8,345 bases of DNA from a virus (Duplodnaviria; Heunggongvirae; Uroviricota; Caudoviricetes). A program made the translations under genes and the position numbers. Of the stretch, positions 402 to 5,655 are shown piece by piece. Where the stretch lies: IMG/VR virus record IMGVR_UViG_2778261591_000009; one strand, given 5' to 3'. The notes beneath the pieces were generated by a model. The model was not told the DNA's origin. It did not search any database and was given only the letters and a program-made list of their open reading frames with translations. How positions within the stretch are numbered: position 1 is the stretch's first letter; each line of letters starts with the position of its first letter.

Positions 402-533
402 TTAATTTGCTCCAGATACAATGAATCGCCGCAGCGTGGCTACGGTTGGTATTTGTTGCATACCGAAACGGTACGATTGTTGATTTGTACAGTAGGTTTT
501 ACGATGCCATTCCACCCATTTGGTGAGGCATTG

Positions 534-791
534 ATGATGTACAGCAAATACGATGAGGCGCAGTTCCACTTGAGGCTTACGCACGAGTTGCACGCCAAGA
601 TTAAACAGCGTGCAAAAATGAATAACAGGTCTATCAATTCCGAAATTGTGGCTACGATGGAAGAATCACTCTCCAAACCATCACCTGTAAGCGGGTATCG
701 TGATGAAGAAGAGAGGCTGGCCTCATTAATCTCGGAACGAGTAAAAGAAGTTGCGGCTGATATCCTTAGAAAAGAAAAAACCCGCGATTAA
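534..791 (+). CDS. mnt: Mnt-like ribbon-helix-helix repressor (Arc/MetJ fold), 85 aa, second orphan copy
   Basis: Same frame as track ORF 3..791 but starting at ATG 534 (GAGG at 525-528). Protein is MMYSKYDEAQFHLRLTHELHAKIKQRAKMNNRSINSEIVATMEESLSKPSPVSGYRDEEERLASLISERVKEVAADILRKEKTRD. It has the RHH signature (FxLRL beta strand, NxRSxNSEIV helix), and the LSKPSPVSGYR...ERLA tail closely resembles the P22 Mnt C-terminal region as I recall it. The upstream part of the track ORF (3..533) looks non-coding in this frame and is occupied on the other strand by the tailspike start. Stop TAA 789-791 lies in the loop of the terminator hairpin. Confidence 0.8.
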   Translation: MMYSKYDEAQFHLRLTHELHAKIKQRAKMNNRSINSEIVATMEESLSKPSPVSGYRDEEERLASLISERVKEVAADILRKEKTRD

Positions 792-799
792 GCGGGTTT
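778..799. terminator. Intrinsic terminator hairpin shared by convergent genes (strong for the minus-strand ant operon, weaker for plus-strand mnt-like gene)
   Basis: Stem aaacccgc (778-785) pairs with gcgggttt (792-799) around a 6-nt loop. On the minus strand the hairpin is followed by UUUCUUUUC and lies 6 nt after the stop of the 73-aa ORF (806). On the plus strand it is followed by a weaker U-containing tract (aguugguuaguu). Confidence 0.7.
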
Positions 800-805
800 A
801 GTTGG

Positions 806-1027
806 TTAGTTATCAAAAAGTCCGTACGTTTCTTCTTCTTCAGGTGTAAGGGGAAGAATCTCTACTCTATCTATAGATACCTTTTCAATGTACCCATGAG
901 GTCTACTTAAAATTAAAGCTCTCTCATGCCACAGAACTCCAAGAATGTGATACCTCCCAGCATCGCCTTTTACCCTGGCTCTTCCTTTGATTCTTGGCGG
1001 CATAATGCCATATTTTTTCTTTGCCAT
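806..1027 (-). CDS. Hypothetical small protein (73 aa), translationally coupled to the upstream antirepressor-like gene
   Basis: ATG 1025-1027 overlaps the TAA stop (1027-1029) of the upstream gene as TAATG on the minus strand; it is the last gene before the terminator. Protein MAKKKYGIMPPRIKGRARVKGDAGRYHILGVLWHERALILSRPHGYIEKVSIDRVEILPLTPEEEETYGLFDN has a lysine/arginine-rich N-terminus and an acidic C-terminal tail. I do not recognise the family. Confidence 0.55.
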   Translation of the reverse strand: MAKKKYGIMPPRIKGRARVKGDAGRYHILGVLWHERALILSRPHGYIEKVSIDRVEILPLTPEEEETYGLFDN

Positions 1028-1755
1028 TATGCAACATTACTCCCATGAATCAGGTGTTGTAGTGCTTTAACACCTTCCGCATTGTAGCGGAATACTTCCA
1101 CCTGTTTGCTGGAATGCGCAGATTTATCCAGGAAGAACTTACCGTACTGCTCAGTTTTGAGGTTGTTTGCGTTAGCAATGCGACCAATCTTGTTGGCCGT
1201 TACTCCAAGCTGCTCTGCAACCTCCCCTGCTGAGTAGTAATGCTCTTCTATTGCTGGAAGAGGTATTGCATTAAAACCAACGATCGGGTTGATTATGCTT
1301 GCTGCCGCAGTCTGCTTTGCTTCCGGCGCAAGATTTGGCATCAAATCGAACAGATTGGTAACAGCTTCAACCGTCATTTTCAATGTTCGCGCCTGGCGAT
1401 ACTCAACAAGTCCACTCGACGATTTACCGCTTTTAATGTGCGCTTCTTGCATACTTTCAAGTTGGTCTACAAGTGAGCGGCGAACAGCTTTAGATTCACG
1501 AGCAGCCACTCGAAGGGCTTGCTTAATTGACATAACAACTTTTTCAGAAGTTGTCTTGTTTGATTTTTGAACTACGAAAATTTCGTAGTGCTCACCTTCA
1601 AGTTCATCCTTAATGCGTGCAATAAAGTCGTTATTTCGGACTTCTTTTTCCCCGCACTGTCTACGAGCATGATTGACCATCTCTAACAGGTACTGGCTAT
1701 CAATGGTTTTATCCGTGACAACGGATCCGATGTTTGCTACATTCTTAAAAGTCAT
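1027..1755 (-). CDS. Antirepressor-like phage regulatory protein (242 aa), second gene of tandem ant pair
   Basis: Track ORF 1027..1842 trimmed to the ATG at 1753-1755, which is preceded by AAGGAA (plus-strand ttcctt 1762-1767); the longer N-terminal extension has no ribosome-binding site. It sits immediately downstream of the Bro-N antirepressor in the same operon. The C-terminal segment YSAGEVAEQLGVTANKIGRIANANNLKTEQYGKFF...VEVFRYNAEGVKAL looks like a helix-turn-helix region of the kind found in phage antirepressor C-terminal (KilAC/ORF6C-type) domains. The family assignment is from memory and position only. Confidence 0.6.
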   Translation of the reverse strand: MTFKNVANIGSVVTDKTIDSQYLLEMVNHARRQCGEKEVRNNDFIARIKDELEGEHYEIFVVQKSNKTTSEKVVMSIKQALRVAARESKAVRRSLVDQLESMQEAHIKSGKSSSGLVEYRQARTLKMTVEAVTNLFDLMPNLAPEAKQTAAASIINPIVGFNAIPLPAIEEHYYSAGEVAEQLGVTANKIGRIANANNLKTEQYGKFFLDKSAHSSKQVEVFRYNAEGVKALQHLIHGSNVA

Positions 1756-1823
1756 TAGGCATTCCTTATGTGGTAGTAAGGGTGTGACATAGGCCGCCAG
1801 CAGCACACTGGCGGTTTTCTTTT
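1750..1823 (+). ncRNA. Candidate sar-like antisense RNA (about 74 nt) opposite the start codon and ribosome-binding site of the second antirepressor gene, ending at an intrinsic terminator
   Basis: Plus-strand promoter-like elements lie inside the first codons of the minus-strand gene: GTGACA (1715-1720), a 14-bp gap, then extended -10 TGcTACATT (1735-1743). The predicted start is near 1750. A GC-rich hairpin (ccgccag 1794-1800, loop cagcaca, ctggcgg 1808-1814) is followed directly by UUUUCUUUU (1815-1823). On the minus strand the same hairpin is not followed by a U-tract, so it is oriented for a plus-strand transcript. Ends are approximate. Confidence 0.45.
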
Positions 1824-1842
1824 GCGCCGTCCTGTGCGCCAA

Positions 1843-2481
1843 TCAATGAATCCATTCCTCGCCGCGAAGTTTTGCCAGCATTGGCTGAGCGTTCTTTACG
1901 ACAAAATTGTTGGGATCAAGATTCTTCATTTCACGAAGAAGCGATTTCTTGGTTTCTTCTGACATGTAGCGAGTCTCATATGCAATATCGTAAATCTTTC
2001 CTGAAAGCTCAGAACCAATTTGCTTCATTCCAGGGTAGATGTGTTTGCACATTTGTTGACTCTTCTCCATCCACAATTGTAAGTAGCAGAGATTAACCAG
2101 TTCTTCGTCAGTAAACTGTTTTGCAATCGGTGAGCATTCTGCCTGCCGATCCAAAATATCCAGCACCCAGCGGCGGAACTCTTTGGCCTTGGGCGTAGAA
2201 GCAAACATCGCCACCAAGTGAGCGCCTCGGAGTGAGTAAACTCTGACCGATTTGTTACGTAAGCTATTGTTTATTCCGTTGACCTTCATATTGAGGGTCA
2301 ATGACATTGAGTCAGAAAATTCGTCAGCATTACGGGCATAAATTTGGCTGATGGCATCAGTTTTTTTATAGCCGAGAGCCTTAGCTAGTTCGGTGGAGGT
2401 AAACCAGATAGACCCGCCCTCTGTTACAGGGTTAAAAGTGAATCCTTGGAAGTTATAATCTGATTTTGCTACAATATTCAT
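1843..2481 (-). CDS. Bro-N domain antirepressor (Ant-like), 212 aa
   Basis: Track ORF 1843..2565 trimmed to the ATG at 2479-2481, preceded by AAGGAA at 7-nt spacing; upstream in-frame ATGs lack a ribosome-binding site and would overlap arc. The N-terminus MNIVAKSDYNFQGFTFNPVTEGGSIWFTSTELAKALGYKKTDAISQIYARNADEF...VRVYSLRGAHLVAMFASTPKAKEFRRWVLDIL matches the Bro-N pattern (F-F ... W-F ... LGY ... F-RW) that I recall from phage antirepressors. It is the first gene after arc, as ant is in P22 immI. Confidence 0.75.
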   Translation of the reverse strand: MNIVAKSDYNFQGFTFNPVTEGGSIWFTSTELAKALGYKKTDAISQIYARNADEFSDSMSLTLNMKVNGINNSLRNKSVRVYSLRGAHLVAMFASTPKAKEFRRWVLDILDRQAECSPIAKQFTDEELVNLCYLQLWMEKSQQMCKHIYPGMKQIGSELSGKIYDIAYETRYMSEETKKSLLREMKNLDPNNFVVKNAQPMLAKLRGEEWIH

Positions 2482-2556
2482 GTTAGTTTCCTTGAGTACG
2501 GTTACTGACATAGAGGCCCGGTTTGTGTTCGCGCACTTCCGGGCTTCACTATTTTT
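2482..2556 (+). ncRNA. Candidate sar-like antisense RNA (about 75-90 nt) across the arc-ant intercistronic region and the ant ribosome-binding site
   Basis: Two plus-strand promoter candidates lie inside the 5' end of the Bro-N ant gene: TTAAAA (2432-2437) with 16-bp spacer and TATAAT (2454-2459), and an extended -10 TGcTACAAT (2467-2475) with TTGGAA (2446-2451) 18 bp upstream. A hairpin (2513-2521 pairing with 2539-2547, including one G-U) is followed by UAUUUUU (2550-2556) abutting the arc stop codon. The position and size correspond to P22 sar RNA, which is established knowledge. Ends are approximate. Confidence 0.45.
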
Positions 2557-2731
2557 ACTGGGCATTAGCTCTTTCCTCTCTCAGGCTTTTAGCCAGTCGC
2601 TGCACAATCGCAGAGTTGATAGAAATTCCATCCATTTCAGCTACGCGTCTGATCTCCTCCTTCATTCGCGCTGGCAAACGAAGCTGGAAACTCTGACTTT
2701 TACGACCACTGTAAAGAACATCGCTCATCAT
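2555..2731 (-). CDS. arc: Arc-like ribbon-helix-helix repressor (58 aa)
   Basis: Track ORF 2555..2746 with the start moved to ATG 2729-2731, which has GGAG (plus-strand ctcc 2738-2741) 6 nt upstream; the track start at 2746 would abut the operator palindrome with no ribosome-binding site. Protein MMSDVLYSGRKSQSFQLRLPARMKEEIRRVAEMDGISINSAIVQRLAKSLREERANAQ aligns with P22 Arc as recalled (QFNLRWPREV...NGRSVNSEIYQRVMESFKKEGR). It is the first gene of the antirepressor operon and divergent from mnt. Confidence 0.8.
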   Translation of the reverse strand: MMSDVLYSGRKSQSFQLRLPARMKEEIRRVAEMDGISINSAIVQRLAKSLREERANAQ

Positions 2732-2742
2732 CAATATCTCCG

Positions 2743-2798
2743 TCATAATGACATCACCATGATGTCATGACACCATTATGATGCCATTGCTCATAATG
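2743..2798. repeat. Cluster of TCATAATG / CATTATGA repeats in the arc-mnt divergent control region
   Basis: TCATAATG occurs at 2743-2750 and 2791-2798, and its reverse complement CATTATGA at 2774-2781. Each contains a CATAAT -10-like hexamer, two on the plus strand and one on the minus strand, interleaved with the 9-bp palindrome arms. Confidence 0.55.
2748..2768. promoter_or_regulatory. Operator-like perfect inverted repeat ATGACATCA-cca-TGATGTCAT at the predicted start of ant-operon transcripts
   Basis: Two 9-bp arms (2748-2756 and 2760-2768) are exact reverse complements separated by 3 bp. The repeat lies between the candidate Pant -10 and the arc ribosome-binding site, where a repressor would block initiation; in P22 the Mnt operator overlaps the Pant start point. 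The flanks hold further related repeats: TCATAATG at 2743-2750 and 2791-2798, and the inverted copy CATTATGA at 2774-2781. Confidence 0.6.
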
Positions 2799-2802
2799 TC
2801 AA
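2775..2802 (-). promoter_or_regulatory. Candidate Pant-like sigma-70 promoter for the arc-ant operon (-35 TTGACA, 16-bp spacer, -10 CATAAT)
   Basis: On the minus strand there is a perfect TTGACA (plus coordinates 2797-2802), a 16-bp spacer, then CATAAT (2775-2780). The predicted start is near 2767-2769, inside the palindrome, about 36 nt upstream of the arc ATG. A divergent plus-strand candidate for mnt (ATGACA 2767-2772, 19-bp spacer, CATAAT 2792-2797) overlaps it, giving face-to-face overlapping promoters as in P22 immI. Confidence 0.5.
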
Positions 2803-2851
2803 TATGATGCTACTGTGTTTTTTATTGCTCATATGCCTTGCGAATAAGAAA

Positions 2852-3103
2852 ATGTCAGAAAAAGACGAATCAAATTTCATAGAAAGATTTACGGTTAGAA
2901 TGCCTGACGGCATGCGTAGTGCTATTGCGGAAAGGGCTAAACGAAACGGTCGATCTATGAACTCAGAGATAGTTCAAATTCTTGAGGATGCGTTATCATC
3001 TGACGTCTCATCAGTAGACAAATCATTAGATCTTAAACAAATAAAATCTTTACTTGATAAAATTTCCAACGAGTTACTGGATAGAATCCCAAAAGACACA
3101 TAA
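2852..3103 (+). CDS. mnt: Mnt-like ribbon-helix-helix repressor, 83 aa (positional mnt)
   Basis: Track ORF 2804..3103 trimmed to the ATG at 2852-2854; the 16-aa upstream extension MMLLCFLLLICLANKK is hydrophobic and implausible for a repressor. Protein MSEKDESNFIERFTVRMPDGMRSAIAERAKRNGRSMNSEIVQILEDALSSDVSSVDKSLDLKQIKSLLDKISNELLDRIPKDT. The N-terminal half matches the Mnt/Arc RHH motif (P22 Mnt ...FRMPMEVREKLKFRAEANGRSMNSELLQIVQDALS as recalled), and the C-terminal half is heptad-like, consistent with a coiled-coil oligomerisation tail. It is transcribed divergently from arc, as mnt is in P22. The region is AT-rich. Confidence 0.8.
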   Translation: MSEKDESNFIERFTVRMPDGMRSAIAERAKRNGRSMNSEIVQILEDALSSDVSSVDKSLDLKQIKSLLDKISNELLDRIPKDT

Positions 3104-3153
3104 CAAAACATTATCATCCGGTGTTCTGCTCAAAACTAAGGAGTGGCTACTCA

Positions 3154-3792
3154 ATGAAAAAAATAGATATATATAGCGATACATCAGCCTATGTCATAGG
3201 CTCATTGGGTTTTTTAATTTTTTTTGTTTGGCAGTACCAGTCACTATCTCCAGGATGGCGATTTTTGGGGATGTCTTTGATATCACTTGGTGCAGGAATA
3301 GCAACGCAGGTGTTGATGTATCTCTTTAATGGATGGCTCTCAAAAAGAGTTGAGAAAAAAAGAGCTACTTCAATATGTAGAAGCCTAGCTATTCCAGAAG
3401 ACTCTACAGATCAGGATGATATTGCAAAATGTTGGCGGTATATGATTGCAAGATACTCAAATGAGTTACTGGCAAACAGACTGTCCGACTTAATCGGGAT
3501 CGTAGTTACCTCTGTTGGAACAATCATCAGTATAGGGATATCAATTTGGTATGTCGGGATGATTGTCTATTTTGTTTGGAATAGAGACTTCAATGAACCT
3601 TCCCTTCTTTTTATACCTTTATTTTTCAGGGTATTAGCATTCATATGTGAGTTATTGCTCTCTTTTTTCTGCAATGTTTTGTTCAACAGATACCCAGGTG
3701 AAGCAAGAAAGTTTAATAAAAACTATGATGAGTTAAGGAGAACAGATCCTTTTCTATCAAGCAAAGAGTTCCGCGATTCCATTCGCAATTAA
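3154..3792 (+). CDS. Polytopic inner-membrane protein (212 aa) at the sieA position; candidate superinfection-exclusion protein
   Basis: Track ORF 3121..3792 trimmed to ATG 3154-3156, with AAGGAG at 3138-3143. The protein has at least four hydrophobic helices (AYVIGSLGFLIFFVWQY, FLGMSLISLGAGIATQVLMYLF, LIGIVVTSVGTIISIGISIWYVGMIVYFVW, LLFIPLFFRVLAFICELLLSFFCNVLF). The gene is very AT-rich (about one-third GC in sampled stretches against about 45-50% in the late genes). It lies between the ejection gene gp16 and mnt on the mnt strand, which is the slot P22 uses for sieA. The functional call is positional; I cannot confirm sequence similarity to SieA from memory. Confidence 0.7.
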   Translation: MKKIDIYSDTSAYVIGSLGFLIFFVWQYQSLSPGWRFLGMSLISLGAGIATQVLMYLFNGWLSKRVEKKRATSICRSLAIPEDSTDQDDIAKCWRYMIARYSNELLANRLSDLIGIVVTSVGTIISIGISIWYVGMIVYFVWNRDFNEPSLLFIPLFFRVLAFICELLLSFFCNVLFNRYPGEARKFNKNYDELRRTDPFLSSKEFRDSIRN

Positions 3793-3813: not shown

Positions 3814-5655
3814 TTAGCGATCAGTTGCATCATTGGCAAGTATTGGTCTGATGGCATTTGCGGCGTTATTCAGCGCTCTTTCATAGGCTGGTGTTCCTGC
3901 TTTGGTGTTTGCCAAACGTAAGAGAGCATTCCTTGCTGCTTTAGACTCATACAAACGCATCATTGCACCAAAGCCAGCCTCAAGCCCCATTGATACGCCA
4001 AGAGTCGCAGTTGCGCCAATCGTCCTTATCCGGTTGGCTTGCGATTGCCCCGTCTGAGTTACTACATTTGCGGTGTCTGACCTTGCTGTTTGCTGTAGAA
4101 CTTCATGAAGAGAATCAAGCTCTTTCATGTGCTTTCCAGAAAAAATAGTGTTGTAAATTTCACCACCTGACTGAGATTTCAGCTTATTAACTTCAGTGAT
4201 GAACTTGGCTGGAGAATCACCGGCCTTTTCCGCTATTTTGCTGACGTAAGCTGCACGCATAGCATCTTTCCCTTTATCATCCAATGCGCTCCAGATTCGT
4301 TTCACGTCAGATGGTTTTCTGCTTAATACAACGGTATTTATAAGTTCAGGACTGGCTTCACTGCTTGCCTTGTTGAGCTTGTTAGCAATGTTTTTATTAA
4401 GCACCTTATTATAAACGTTTGCATAATCTGAATTTGCTTTAAGGTATTTTGCTGCGTCTGATGCACCGAGGTTTTTAGCAACTGCGTTACGAAGGTCTTT
4501 TGACATTGCATTCTCTACCATATTGGTAGCTGCTTTTGCCTGGTTGGGGAAGACCATAGAATCTCCCTGAACATTAGATCTAAATGCTGTTCTGTGCTGA
4601 CGCAAGAGATCAAACGTAACATCCAAATCAGTTGCAGGGTTTGCTAATTCTTCACGTAGGTTACGCAAGGATGTAAGCAGGCTTTGATTGGCTGAAGTCC
4701 CAAGCCGTTCCTGTCTTGCGATCGCTGTATTCAGAGCATTCATGGTATTTGTGGTATCAACTGCGGCATTACCCATTTTATTGGTGACGTCATTGATAAC
4801 AGCGCCAGCAGCATCCTTCCGCCCCCTTAACGTGGTGGTCAGAGATTTCACCACATCATCAGGGTTGTACTCACCAAAACGGTCAAAATAATTGCTTACC
4901 AGCTTACTACGCGTTGCATATTGCTCCGCTCGCTTTGAGCCTGTCCCGAGCAAAGCCCCCTCGGCATCCTGAGTAAGGCCGCGAGTGAAAGCATTTTTCG
5001 GCGGGATAACATCAGATGTCATTGGTGTCACGCCCATCGATTCTGAAGTGGCAATTTTCTTCGCCACTTCTGGCGCAATATCACCTTTTATAGCCGTTAT
5101 TCCACGCCCTATTCCCTTTGCTGCTGCGGAAAGAACACCCTGAGCGGCAAGGTTAACTCCGGCATTTTTAGCTGCATTTTGTGCGAAATCGCCTTTCTGA
5201 TTTGCGGCCTCTGCCAGTGATCCAATAGCCATGCTTCCTGCCGTTCCAATTCCTGGAACTAAATACCCGCCAATTGTTTCTCCAGCTTGAGCGTAGGGGT
5301 CTGTCGGTCTGTCTACTGGACGATAAACATCATCCAAAACTTTTGGCCCACCAAGCCCCTGACTGATTGCATTAATCAGACTTGCGCCACCCTGCAATAC
5401 GTCAAATGGTATGTTTACCAGACCACGACCAGCCTGTTCTGCAATTTGCCCTGCACTTTGACCACCAGTGAGCCAATCGCCAGCTTGTTGCATCAATGAT
5501 GGTTCTTCCCGTGTTGGTGCATTATTGGCCTGATTAACTGTTTGTTGCTGAACAGCCTGACCAGCAAAATACTCATCAATGGCGGTGCCAATATCTTCGG
5601 TGCTCGTACCATCAGGAAAGGTAAATGTCTTACCGTTTGCAGTTACTTTCATCAT
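3814..5655 (-). CDS. Ejection (DNA-transfer) protein, P22 gp16-like, about 613 aa
   Basis: Long minus-strand ORF with late-gene composition. Its tandem ATGs at 5653-5655 and 5650-5652 overlap the TGA stop of the upstream gene (ATGA-type coupling). It is third in a run of 224, 490 and 613 aa that matches the size and order of P22 gp7 (229), gp20 (471) and gp16 (609) immediately upstream of sieA/mnt. The sequence is Gly/Ala/Gln-rich with no obvious enzymatic motif. The assignment rests on synteny and size. Confidence 0.8.

Follow-up and report, generated by a model that had tools for sequence, protein, structure and literature searches.

A two-slot variant of the P22 immunity-I region in an Escherichia coli prophage, with two unrelated antirepressor-class genes and a candidate second sar-type antisense RNA

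The 8,345-nucleotide (nt) stretch of DNA analyzed here, IMG/VR virus record IMGVR_UViG_2778261591_000009 (the window, at its full length), contains the immunity-I (immI) or 'ant moron' region of a P22-like Escherichia coli prophage, and it carries two separate, complete antirepressor-class genes in tandem where P22 has the single gene ant. The two genes, ORF1 (positions 2481–1843; 212 amino acids (aa) plus stop) and ORF2 (1755–1027; 242 aa plus stop), are separated by an 87-nt spacer (1756–1842), with lengths and spacing exactly as reported in a preliminary description made from the sequence; both are on the minus strand. We think it reasonably probable that the locus is a two-slot version of P22 immI, in which the two unrelated genes would be co-transcribed and each would be gated by its own sar-type antisense RNA, one encoded in front of ORF1 (sar1) and the other in front of ORF2 (sar2).

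Both position and content place the locus in immI. According to the list of open reading frames and profile searches, the window is the end of the late operon of a Lederbergvirus-type prophage in reverse orientation, with the order gp7-gp20-gp16, a sieA-like gene, an mnt-like gene, an arc-like gene, ORF1, ORF2, ORF3, a second Arc-family gene and the tailspike gene. This matches the order in P22 (16-sieA-mnt-arc-sar-ant-9), which has its single ant between arc and gene 9. As in P22, the region lies between ejection gene 16/sieA and the tailspike gene, and ribbon-helix-helix repressor genes of the Mnt and Arc types are divergently arranged, with overlapping divergent promoters upstream of an antirepressor gene that follows arc. 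Unlike P22 immI, the window has two effector genes, a small third gene (ORF3) and a second Arc-family gene. An identical stretch is found in E. coli UTAK-1, where it runs on into the tailspike gene and the prophage end. The name 'ant moron' comes from Villafane et al., and the moron is highly variable, with ten gene sets in sixteen P22-like genomes (PMC2629481).

ORF1 by itself is a full, domain-swapped relative of P22 Ant, because it has both a complete Bro-N domain and P22_AR_C. The Bro-N domain that the preliminary description had recognized was recovered with Pfam (PF02498, E 1.3e-10, profile positions 5–93 of 96) and is an established N-terminal domain of the modular class of phage regulators; P22_AR_C (PF10548, E 5.4e-14, profile positions 5–72 of 73), the C-terminal domain of the P22 Ant family, is present in addition, and the protein matches PHROG 245/5060 ('anti-repressor Ant'). 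P22_AR_N, found by Pfam in P22 Ant itself (PF10547, E 4.6e-44), is absent from ORF1, with Bro-N in its place. Only the C-domains of the two proteins are homologous, and BLASTP aligns ORF1 to residues 206–274 of Ant alone (30% identity, E 1e-9). ORF1 is also 38–42% identical to the C-terminal part of the Ant proteins of Shiga toxin (Stx) phages (Phi24B/933W), and it has near-identical counterparts in Escherichia phage JEP4 (JEP4_16, 99%) and Salmonella phage SPN3UB (98.6%).

ORF2 shows no similarity to ORF1 or to P22 Ant and matches no Pfam or NCBIfam model, P22_AR_N and P22_AR_C included; NCBIfam has no family for ORF1 either. It aligns end to end with PHROG 1726 'anti-repressor' (positions 1–264 of 264, E 5.8e-100) and belongs to a family of 2050 proteins from the Enterobacterales, the closest 120 of which are nearly all 241–248 aa long. 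The preliminary description had noted a different N-terminal domain and a helix-turn-helix-like C-terminal region, and both observations hold: the protein has its own N-domain (residues ~15–110) and a C-domain (~115–240) that ends in a winged helix-turn-helix. In an exhaustive HMMER search the two halves were found separately in other proteins, the N-half fused to KilAC/ANT domains and the C-half (~110–240) fused to Bro-N, Rha, ORF6N or KilA-N. A domain-shuffling class that joins Bro-N, KilA-N, Rha or ORF6N to KilAC(ANT), P22_AR_C or ORF6C was reportedly described by Iyer, Koonin and Aravind in 2002. ORF1 and ORF2 resemble such regulators in that both consist of an N-domain plus a C-domain; ORF1 carries two named domains of the class, whereas both domains of ORF2 recombine with named ones elsewhere without being covered by a model themselves.

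Structural comparisons point ORF2 toward this class. The best Foldseek matches in BFVD were antirepressor, KilAC and KilA proteins (E 3.7e-10 to 1e-6), labels that are themselves only annotation, and the best matches among solved structures were the DNA-binding domains of pSK1 Par, RacA and the MerR family. PDB chains searched with both protein sequences and with the family profile of ORF2 yielded nothing beyond designed repeat proteins and weak matches to the CAP helix-turn-helix. When the ORF2 N-domain was compared with Rha and Bro-N sets using hhalign, the match was only partial (Rha N-domains, 75% probability, 31 columns), and its profile-profile match to the Bro-N domain of ORF1 was weak (probability 16%). 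Because of the domain partners seen elsewhere, the BFVD matches and the winged helix-turn-helix, ORF2 is probably a complete member of the modular Bro/Rha/KilA/ANT regulator class, unrelated to ORF1 and built of two winged-helix-type domains. Such genes are currently labelled without consistency as 'KilA', 'Rha', 'Roi', 'antirepressor' or 'hypothetical'. The 'Roi' label on one homologue was rejected as an annotation transfer, there being no similarity at a cutoff of E 1e-3 to the HK022 reading frame that we take to be roi, a 241-aa Rha plus KilAC-like protein that is our own identification within the unannotated nin region.

These domain assignments bear on whether there are two genes at all. 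The preliminary description had left room for ORF1 and ORF2 being two halves of what is a single modular Ant in other phages, and it had itself named the contrary case, one ant gene broken by a stop codon or frameshift, a pseudogene. The class is modular, and single proteins in which Bro-N is fused to the ORF2 C-domain do exist (P0125 and P0219). However, domain and family alignments show two complete genes: ORF1 has a complete N-domain and a complete P22_AR_C, and ORF2, which resembles P22 Ant nowhere, matches its family over the full length with an N-domain of its own. Moreover, a hairpin and a Shine-Dalgarno sequence lie in the 87-nt spacer, which is conserved, both genes of the pair are undamaged at 92–100% identity in 60 E. 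coli genomes as well as in an isolated phage (JEP4), and there are loci in which a full P22-type Ant gene is followed by an ORF2-type gene. The split-gene reading is refuted by these observations, and the idea of two half-genes finds no support in them.

The first of the two antisense units, sar1 (2446–2556, plus strand), was located by promoter scanning and folding and reproduces the layout of the P22 sar gene. Its promoter (TTGGAA, an 18-nt spacer ending in TGC, and TACAAT; 2446–2475) is embedded in codons 3–12 of ORF1, just as the antisense promoter of P22 lies in codons 3–12 of ant. As in P22, the predicted RNA (~2482–2556, 75 nt) would begin next to the ATG, would be complementary to the ORF1 ribosome-binding site, and would end at a terminator (stem 2513–2547 plus T-run) in the spacer behind arc. 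It folds into two stem-loops as P22 sar does (z -5.6 versus -5.3 for P22 sar), and the two share short sequence blocks, namely TTACTGACA and a GAAGCCC/GGGCTTC-type terminator. A crude detector picked up a sar1-type unit at 80 of the first-slot genes in 143 related loci, as opposed to 2.6% of control windows. Judged by these features, sar1 is plainly a diverged P22 sar homologue, though not a member of the Rfam sar family RF00262 by score. The ORF1 frame is also open upstream to an ATG at 2565 (2482–2565, minus strand), giving a potential 240-aa form that overlaps the arc stop codon. This longer form is annotated in SPN3UB, and RefSeq and JEP4 take the 212-aa form. The extension is probably not coding, because its apparent conservation ('SKNSEA') falls where the sar1 terminator has its A-tract and stem.

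The second unit, the candidate sar2 (1715–1823, plus strand), occupies the start of ORF2 and the spacer in front of it. The preliminary description had placed an antisense terminator in this spacer, and the terminator scan agrees: a hairpin, GGCCGCCAG-CAGCACA-CTGGCGG followed by TTTTCTTTT (1791–1826), scores as an intrinsic terminator on the plus strand only, antisense to the operon. It has a 10-bp stem with six GC pairs and a 7-nt loop, and lacks a T-run on the sense strand; the ORF2 Shine-Dalgarno sequence can be read from the minus strand of the same spacer. Facing this terminator from within codons 5–14 of ORF2, the promoter scan found GTGACA (1715–1720), a 17-nt spacer ending in TGC, and the -10 element TACATT (1738–1743). 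An RNA starting ~7 nt past the -10 element is predicted to span ~1750–1823 and to end at 1818–1823 (~72 nt), and as such would be able to pair with the start codon and Shine-Dalgarno sequence of ORF2. Both sar1 and sar2 thus have the geometry of sar, with a promoter in the first codons of the target, an RNA that would cover the start codon and Shine-Dalgarno sequence, and a terminator in the upstream spacer. The predicted cis-antisense RNAs resemble RF00262 in their length of ~70 nt, in their start at the target's start codon, in the extended -10 motif TGC-TAnnnT within target codons 3–5, and in the position of the intrinsic terminator. They differ in that the target of sar2 is unrelated to ant, and in that sar2 has a different terminator stem and a less defined 5' stem-loop.

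The genomic distribution of the tandem indicates to which gene position the sar2 unit belongs. JEP4 carries the ORF1-spacer-ORF2-ORF3 block at 94% identity, with a nearly identical spacer and with 'Rha protein' and 'KilA protein' as the gene annotations, and at least 80% of the block's length is present in 60 of 5426 complete E. coli genomes, with parts of it in 380. In SPN3UB, the same ORF1 has another gene behind it, encoding an ORF6N protein, while Klebsiella phage phiKp_30 has an ORF2 that is 98.8% identical, preceded by only the last ~24 nt of ORF1. The spacer hairpin is kept in JEP4, SPN3UB and phiKp_30 alike. The ORF1 remnant of phiKp_30 (..GEEWIH*, followed by the hairpin, at ~4850–4900) is, to judge from its sequence, the scar of an ORF1 deletion from a two-slot ancestor. 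A query with the single ORF2 protein yielded only 11 genome loci. Scanning IMG/VR for the exact pattern of the hairpin yielded 112 contigs. The genes flanking the hairpin in these contigs were an ORF1-type plus an ORF2-type gene (71), an ORF1-type plus an ORF6N-type gene (13), a P22-Ant-type plus an ORF2-type gene (11), or a third, 293–295-aa type plus ORF2 or ORF6N types (~6).

Combined with a second IMG/VR scan, keyed on the gene start and promoter motif, this gave 165 loci, placing the tandem in at least 165 contigs. With three exceptions among these loci, an antirepressor-like gene stands ahead of the gene bearing the leader, and the preceding gene is at least 180 aa long wherever the contig shows it whole; it is ORF1-like in 139 loci (125 complete, at least 180 aa), P22-Ant-like in 15, and of the third type in eight. 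That an antirepressor-like gene comes first almost without exception assigns the sar2 unit to the second slot. The proteins encoded there form ten clusters at 70% identity and about five families (the ORF2 type, three Rha-like groups, and the ORF6N type), with chimeras such as Rha-N plus ORF2-C and ORF2-N plus KilAC-like among the clusters; promoter and terminator are retained in all ten. By this comparison of loci, the architecture is a recurrent two-slot one with exchangeable cassettes. The tandem genes themselves are ordinary mosaicism, and the gene pair is already present in public genomes.

Against this background of exchange, both elements of sar2 are conserved at the nucleotide level. 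An antisense hairpin with a T-tail was found in 95 of 97 unique leaders from the second scan, for which the hairpin had played no part in selection, 29–44 nt from the start codon, compared with 5% of shuffled sequences and none of the 97 on the sense strand. The leaders contain 41 distinct stem-loops with compensatory changes, examples of two-sided stem changes being GCCGCCAG/CTGGCGGC, GCCGATAG/CTATCGGC, GCCAGCAG/CTGCTGGC and GGCCAGTGG/CCACTGGC. Each of the 116 loci that were selected by the hairpin and offer enough sequence has a -35 element (GTGACA or TCGACA), a spacing of exactly 17 nt including TGn, and TAnnnT; the corresponding frequencies are 3.1% in shuffled sequences and 1.8% in other windows. 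Across the 28 unique promoter segments, information peaks at GACA and at TGCTA..(..)T and is low in the spacer between the elements. The encoded residues over the -10 element vary (N/T/K, then V/L/I, then A, or T in Proteus), whereas the codons are always nTA and GCA/ACA. Likewise, the Val over the -35 element is always encoded by GTC, and the codon before it is always xxT whatever the residue (V, H, G or A). Elsewhere in second-slot genes, the background frequencies are 15% for nTA, 31% for GCA, 12% for GTC and 28% for xxT. This pattern of codon use argues that the sar2 promoter is under synonymous-codon constraint across about five second-slot families, and the conserved terminator together with the codon-embedded promoter looks like a second sar-type antisense RNA gene. 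A homologue of ORF2 encoded in the early-left operon of Stx2a phages, outside immI, has neither the promoter (Ile is ATT, and there is no GTC-AC) nor the antisense terminator, so the elements are not required by the protein.

The same elements could in principle be explained without a small antisense RNA. The hairpin might end a long plus-strand transcript that comes from the second Arc-family gene (504–791) across ORF3 and ORF2, might be a stem-loop that stabilizes or processes the sense mRNA, or might be a recombination linker, with the 'promoter' being nothing but a conserved leader peptide. The stem does form in the sense RNA too, the hairpin coincides exactly with the points where mosaic segments join, second-slot proteins begin with similar peptides (MT..NVA....VVT), and the hairpin at 778–799 has a poor plus-strand T-run, so that transcripts of the Arc-family gene could read through it. 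However, promoter and terminator are kept in all 28 loci with other second-slot types, and in these loci the next 900 nt downstream contain no Arc-family gene. Conservation falls on promoter-critical bases and not on residues (nTA, GCA/ACA and GTC, with the preceding xxT, being fixed), the 17-nt spacing with TGn is constant in 116 of 116 loci, and the T-run is found on the antisense side in 95 of 97 leaders and on the sense side in none. The geometry is also that of the experimentally defined Psar/sar of P22. For these reasons we regard explanations of this kind as unlikely and retain the reading of sar2 as a sar-type unit.

How the two units could act is suggested by the control signals of the operon. 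The control region between the mnt-like and arc-like genes (2747–2851; promoter scan and inverted repeats) contains divergent promoters, a Pant-like one (TTGACA-16-CATAAT, 11 of 12 matches; 2802–2775, minus strand) and a Pmnt-like one (ATGCCA-16-TATGAT; 2781–2808, plus strand), as well as a perfect 9+3+9 palindrome, ATGACATCA-CCA-TGATGTCAT (2748–2768), located between the Pant-like -10 element and the arc start as a candidate operator. The palindrome is accompanied by repeated TCATAATG/CATTATGA motifs, which are candidate Arc/Mnt operators with sequences unlike the P22 operators. A strong sense terminator, AAACCCGC-TTAATC-GCGGGTTT followed by TTTTCTTTTCT (778–799, minus strand; terminator scan), closes the arc-ORF1-ORF2-ORF3 operon at the position of P22 T-ant, though it follows ORF3 here and ant in P22. 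The promoter and terminator scans predicted neither a sense promoter nor a sense terminator in the ORF1–ORF2 interval. From this, together with the Pant-like promoter and the terminator at 778–799, we infer a single arc-ORF1-ORF2-ORF3 transcript.

In the resulting model, the Pant-like promoter, under the control of the Mnt-like and Arc-like repressors, would transcribe arc, ORF1, ORF2 and ORF3 as one minus-strand operon. Within each of the two effector genes, an extended -10 sigma-70 promoter in the early codons would fire backwards and give an antisense RNA of ~70–75 nt that covers the start codon and Shine-Dalgarno sequence and ends at the intrinsic terminator in the upstream spacer. In P22, according to work attributed to Liao, Wu, Susskind and McClure (1987), sar reportedly accumulates after Arc shuts off the convergent Pant, so that Ant is made only briefly and early. 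If the RNAs here work as P22 sar does, a drop in Pant transcription would allow each of them to stop translation of the gene that it covers, and ORF1 and ORF2 would be co-transcribed from Pant and separately gated at translation. This amounts to a second antisense unit, before the second gene, that P22 immI does not have. The preliminary description had taken the terminator in the spacer as an argument for independent regulation. One part of that argument is strengthened by a gene-specific sar-like unit with a conserved antisense promoter; the other part is weakened by the likely co-transcription, with no sense promoter or terminator intervening, and regulation of the two genes is probably not fully independent.

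As for the proteins, ORF1 would be the counterpart of P22 Ant with a swapped N-domain and would most likely bind and inactivate a C2/CI-type prophage repressor. ORF2 is most likely a second antirepressor or regulator with a target that differs from that of ORF1. It is possible, if somewhat doubtful, that ORF2 is no antirepressor at all and instead binds DNA as a transcription factor, or serves in host takeover or anti-defence as a Rha/KilA-like protein, and merely shares the expression window of immI. The two winged-helix-turn-helix-like domains, with DNA-binding proteins as their best solved-structure matches, are compatible with such a role, the related Rha, Roi, KilA and Bro classes have varied or unknown functions, a literature search returned no experimental paper on the family, and the Stx2a-phage homologue resides in an early-left operon instead of immI. 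What favors an antirepressor or regulator is the location of ORF2 directly behind ant, under the same predicted sar-type gating as a proven antirepressor, the antirepressor/KilAC annotation of its closest viral structural matches (annotation only), and the fact that the Stx2a-phage homologue adjoins P22_AR_C Ant genes.

The Stx phages provide the nearest parallel outside immI. The Ant proteins of Phi24B and 933W share P22_AR_C with ORF1, and Stx2a phages pair an ORF2-family gene with a P22_AR_C gene; unlike in the window, these genes are in the early-left operon near int and not behind arc, and the ORF2 homologue has no antisense promoter or terminator. In Stx2a phage F451 (4492–6705), the neighbours in this operon are a gene of the ORF2 family, the fragment of a degraded antirepressor, and an Ant gene with P22_AR_C. 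The ORF2-family and P22_AR_C protein families thus travel together outside immI too.

Several points weigh against the two-slot, doubly gated interpretation. Neither the sar1 nor the sar2 spacer was matched by RF00262 at E <= 10 in the region searched (500–3300), although the P22 positive control scored 97.8 bits against a gathering score of 43, and an Rfam E-value scan of the same region gave chance-level matches only (SymR, Trp and Leu leaders, U7). The predicted fold of sar2 is only modestly better than that of shuffles (z -2.0), and the leader types, whose 5' halves align poorly, do not clearly share its 5' stem-loop. The leader as a whole (hairpin, Shine-Dalgarno sequence and first ~14 codons) could be a recombination linker that spread recently, and its conservation may partly reflect common descent and not selection. 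Many of the loci are near-identical prophages, the effective number of separate lineages in the whole set being perhaps 5–10, and the second viral scan, being keyed on the gene start and promoter motif and not on the hairpin, is unbiased only in its hairpin statistics. On the protein side, the ORF2 family is a putative antirepressor family, and experimental support among relatives comes from P22 Ant itself and, indirectly for Bro-N plus P22_AR_C proteins, from Phi24B, whose Ant shares P22_AR_C with ORF1 and whose ant knockout shows delayed induction (PMC3064807).

The remaining genes of the window complete the picture of the locus. Genes for the ejection proteins equivalent to P22 gp7, gp20 and gp16 (7808–3814, minus strand) were assigned by profile searches, and the sieA-like gene (3121–3792, plus strand) by PHROG 7745. 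The mnt-like gene (2852–3103, plus strand; Pfam Arc, E 2.1e-17) has a frame open from 2804, probably encodes an 83-aa form, and is divergent from arc as in P22. In the identical stretch of the UTAK-1 prophage, RefSeq treats it as a partial Arc-family pseudogene covering 2852–3004 only; the frame is intact to 3103, which makes the protein as long as P22 Mnt (83 aa), its C-terminal half being divergent. In JEP4, a 'repressor protein C2' gene (8198–8767) takes the place of the mnt-like and sieA-like genes, and a CI/C2-type repressor gene thus lies inside the ant moron, adjoining arc. The arc-like gene (2555–2746, minus strand; Pfam Arc, E 1.1e-11; 'Arc family protein' in RefSeq) is the first gene of the operon.

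ORF3 (806–1027, minus strand) encodes a 73-aa protein of PHROG 4977 (E 5.5e-54), a family of no known function. Its ATG overlaps the ORF2 stop codon (TAATG), and this overlap suggests translational coupling of the two genes. A tight functional pairing was ruled out, as ORF3 is found behind only 36 of 67 ORF2-type genes and never behind a second-slot gene of another type, including those that share the ORF2 C-domain; by its distribution it is an optional accessory of the operon. The second Mnt/Arc-family ribbon-helix-helix gene (504–791, plus strand; 95 aa; Pfam Arc, E 7e-14) is convergent with the end of the ant operon, divergent from the tailspike gene and without a counterpart in P22. It is labelled 'regulatory protein mnt' in JEP4, and an Arc-family match is found behind 48 of 67 ORF2-type operons.

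A more general claim can be made from the second-slot comparison, namely that many P22-like prophages carry a portable two-slot immI module, with the second effector, whichever of at least five unrelated families it comes from, gated by its own sar-type RNA whose promoter is written through synonymous codons of the first ~14 codons. We consider the case for this evenly balanced. Our literature search, in which older work on P22 is largely outside coverage, turned up no report of P22-like phages with a further slot for an antirepressor or a further RNA of the sar type, and the immI with two putative antisense gates would be a common but apparently undescribed variant of the P22 immunity-I switch. 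Should the RNAs turn out not to be produced, the locus would be no more than an ordinary mosaic form of a moron already known to be highly variable. If the general claim is true, an antisense 'translation lock' travels with the slot and not with the gene, and one immunity region could deploy two antirepressors with different targets at different times. The layering of two repressors and one antisense RNA in P22 immI is a textbook example of control, and a widespread two-effector form with duplicated gating would extend that model. It would also offer a case, open to experiment, in which codon choice preserves a promoter inside the reading frames of unrelated genes, and would add two uncharacterized domains (ORF2-N and ORF2-C) and one small RNA family to annotation resources. 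A second effector with a different target could, in addition, bear on cross-induction of prophages or resistance to it in polylysogens.

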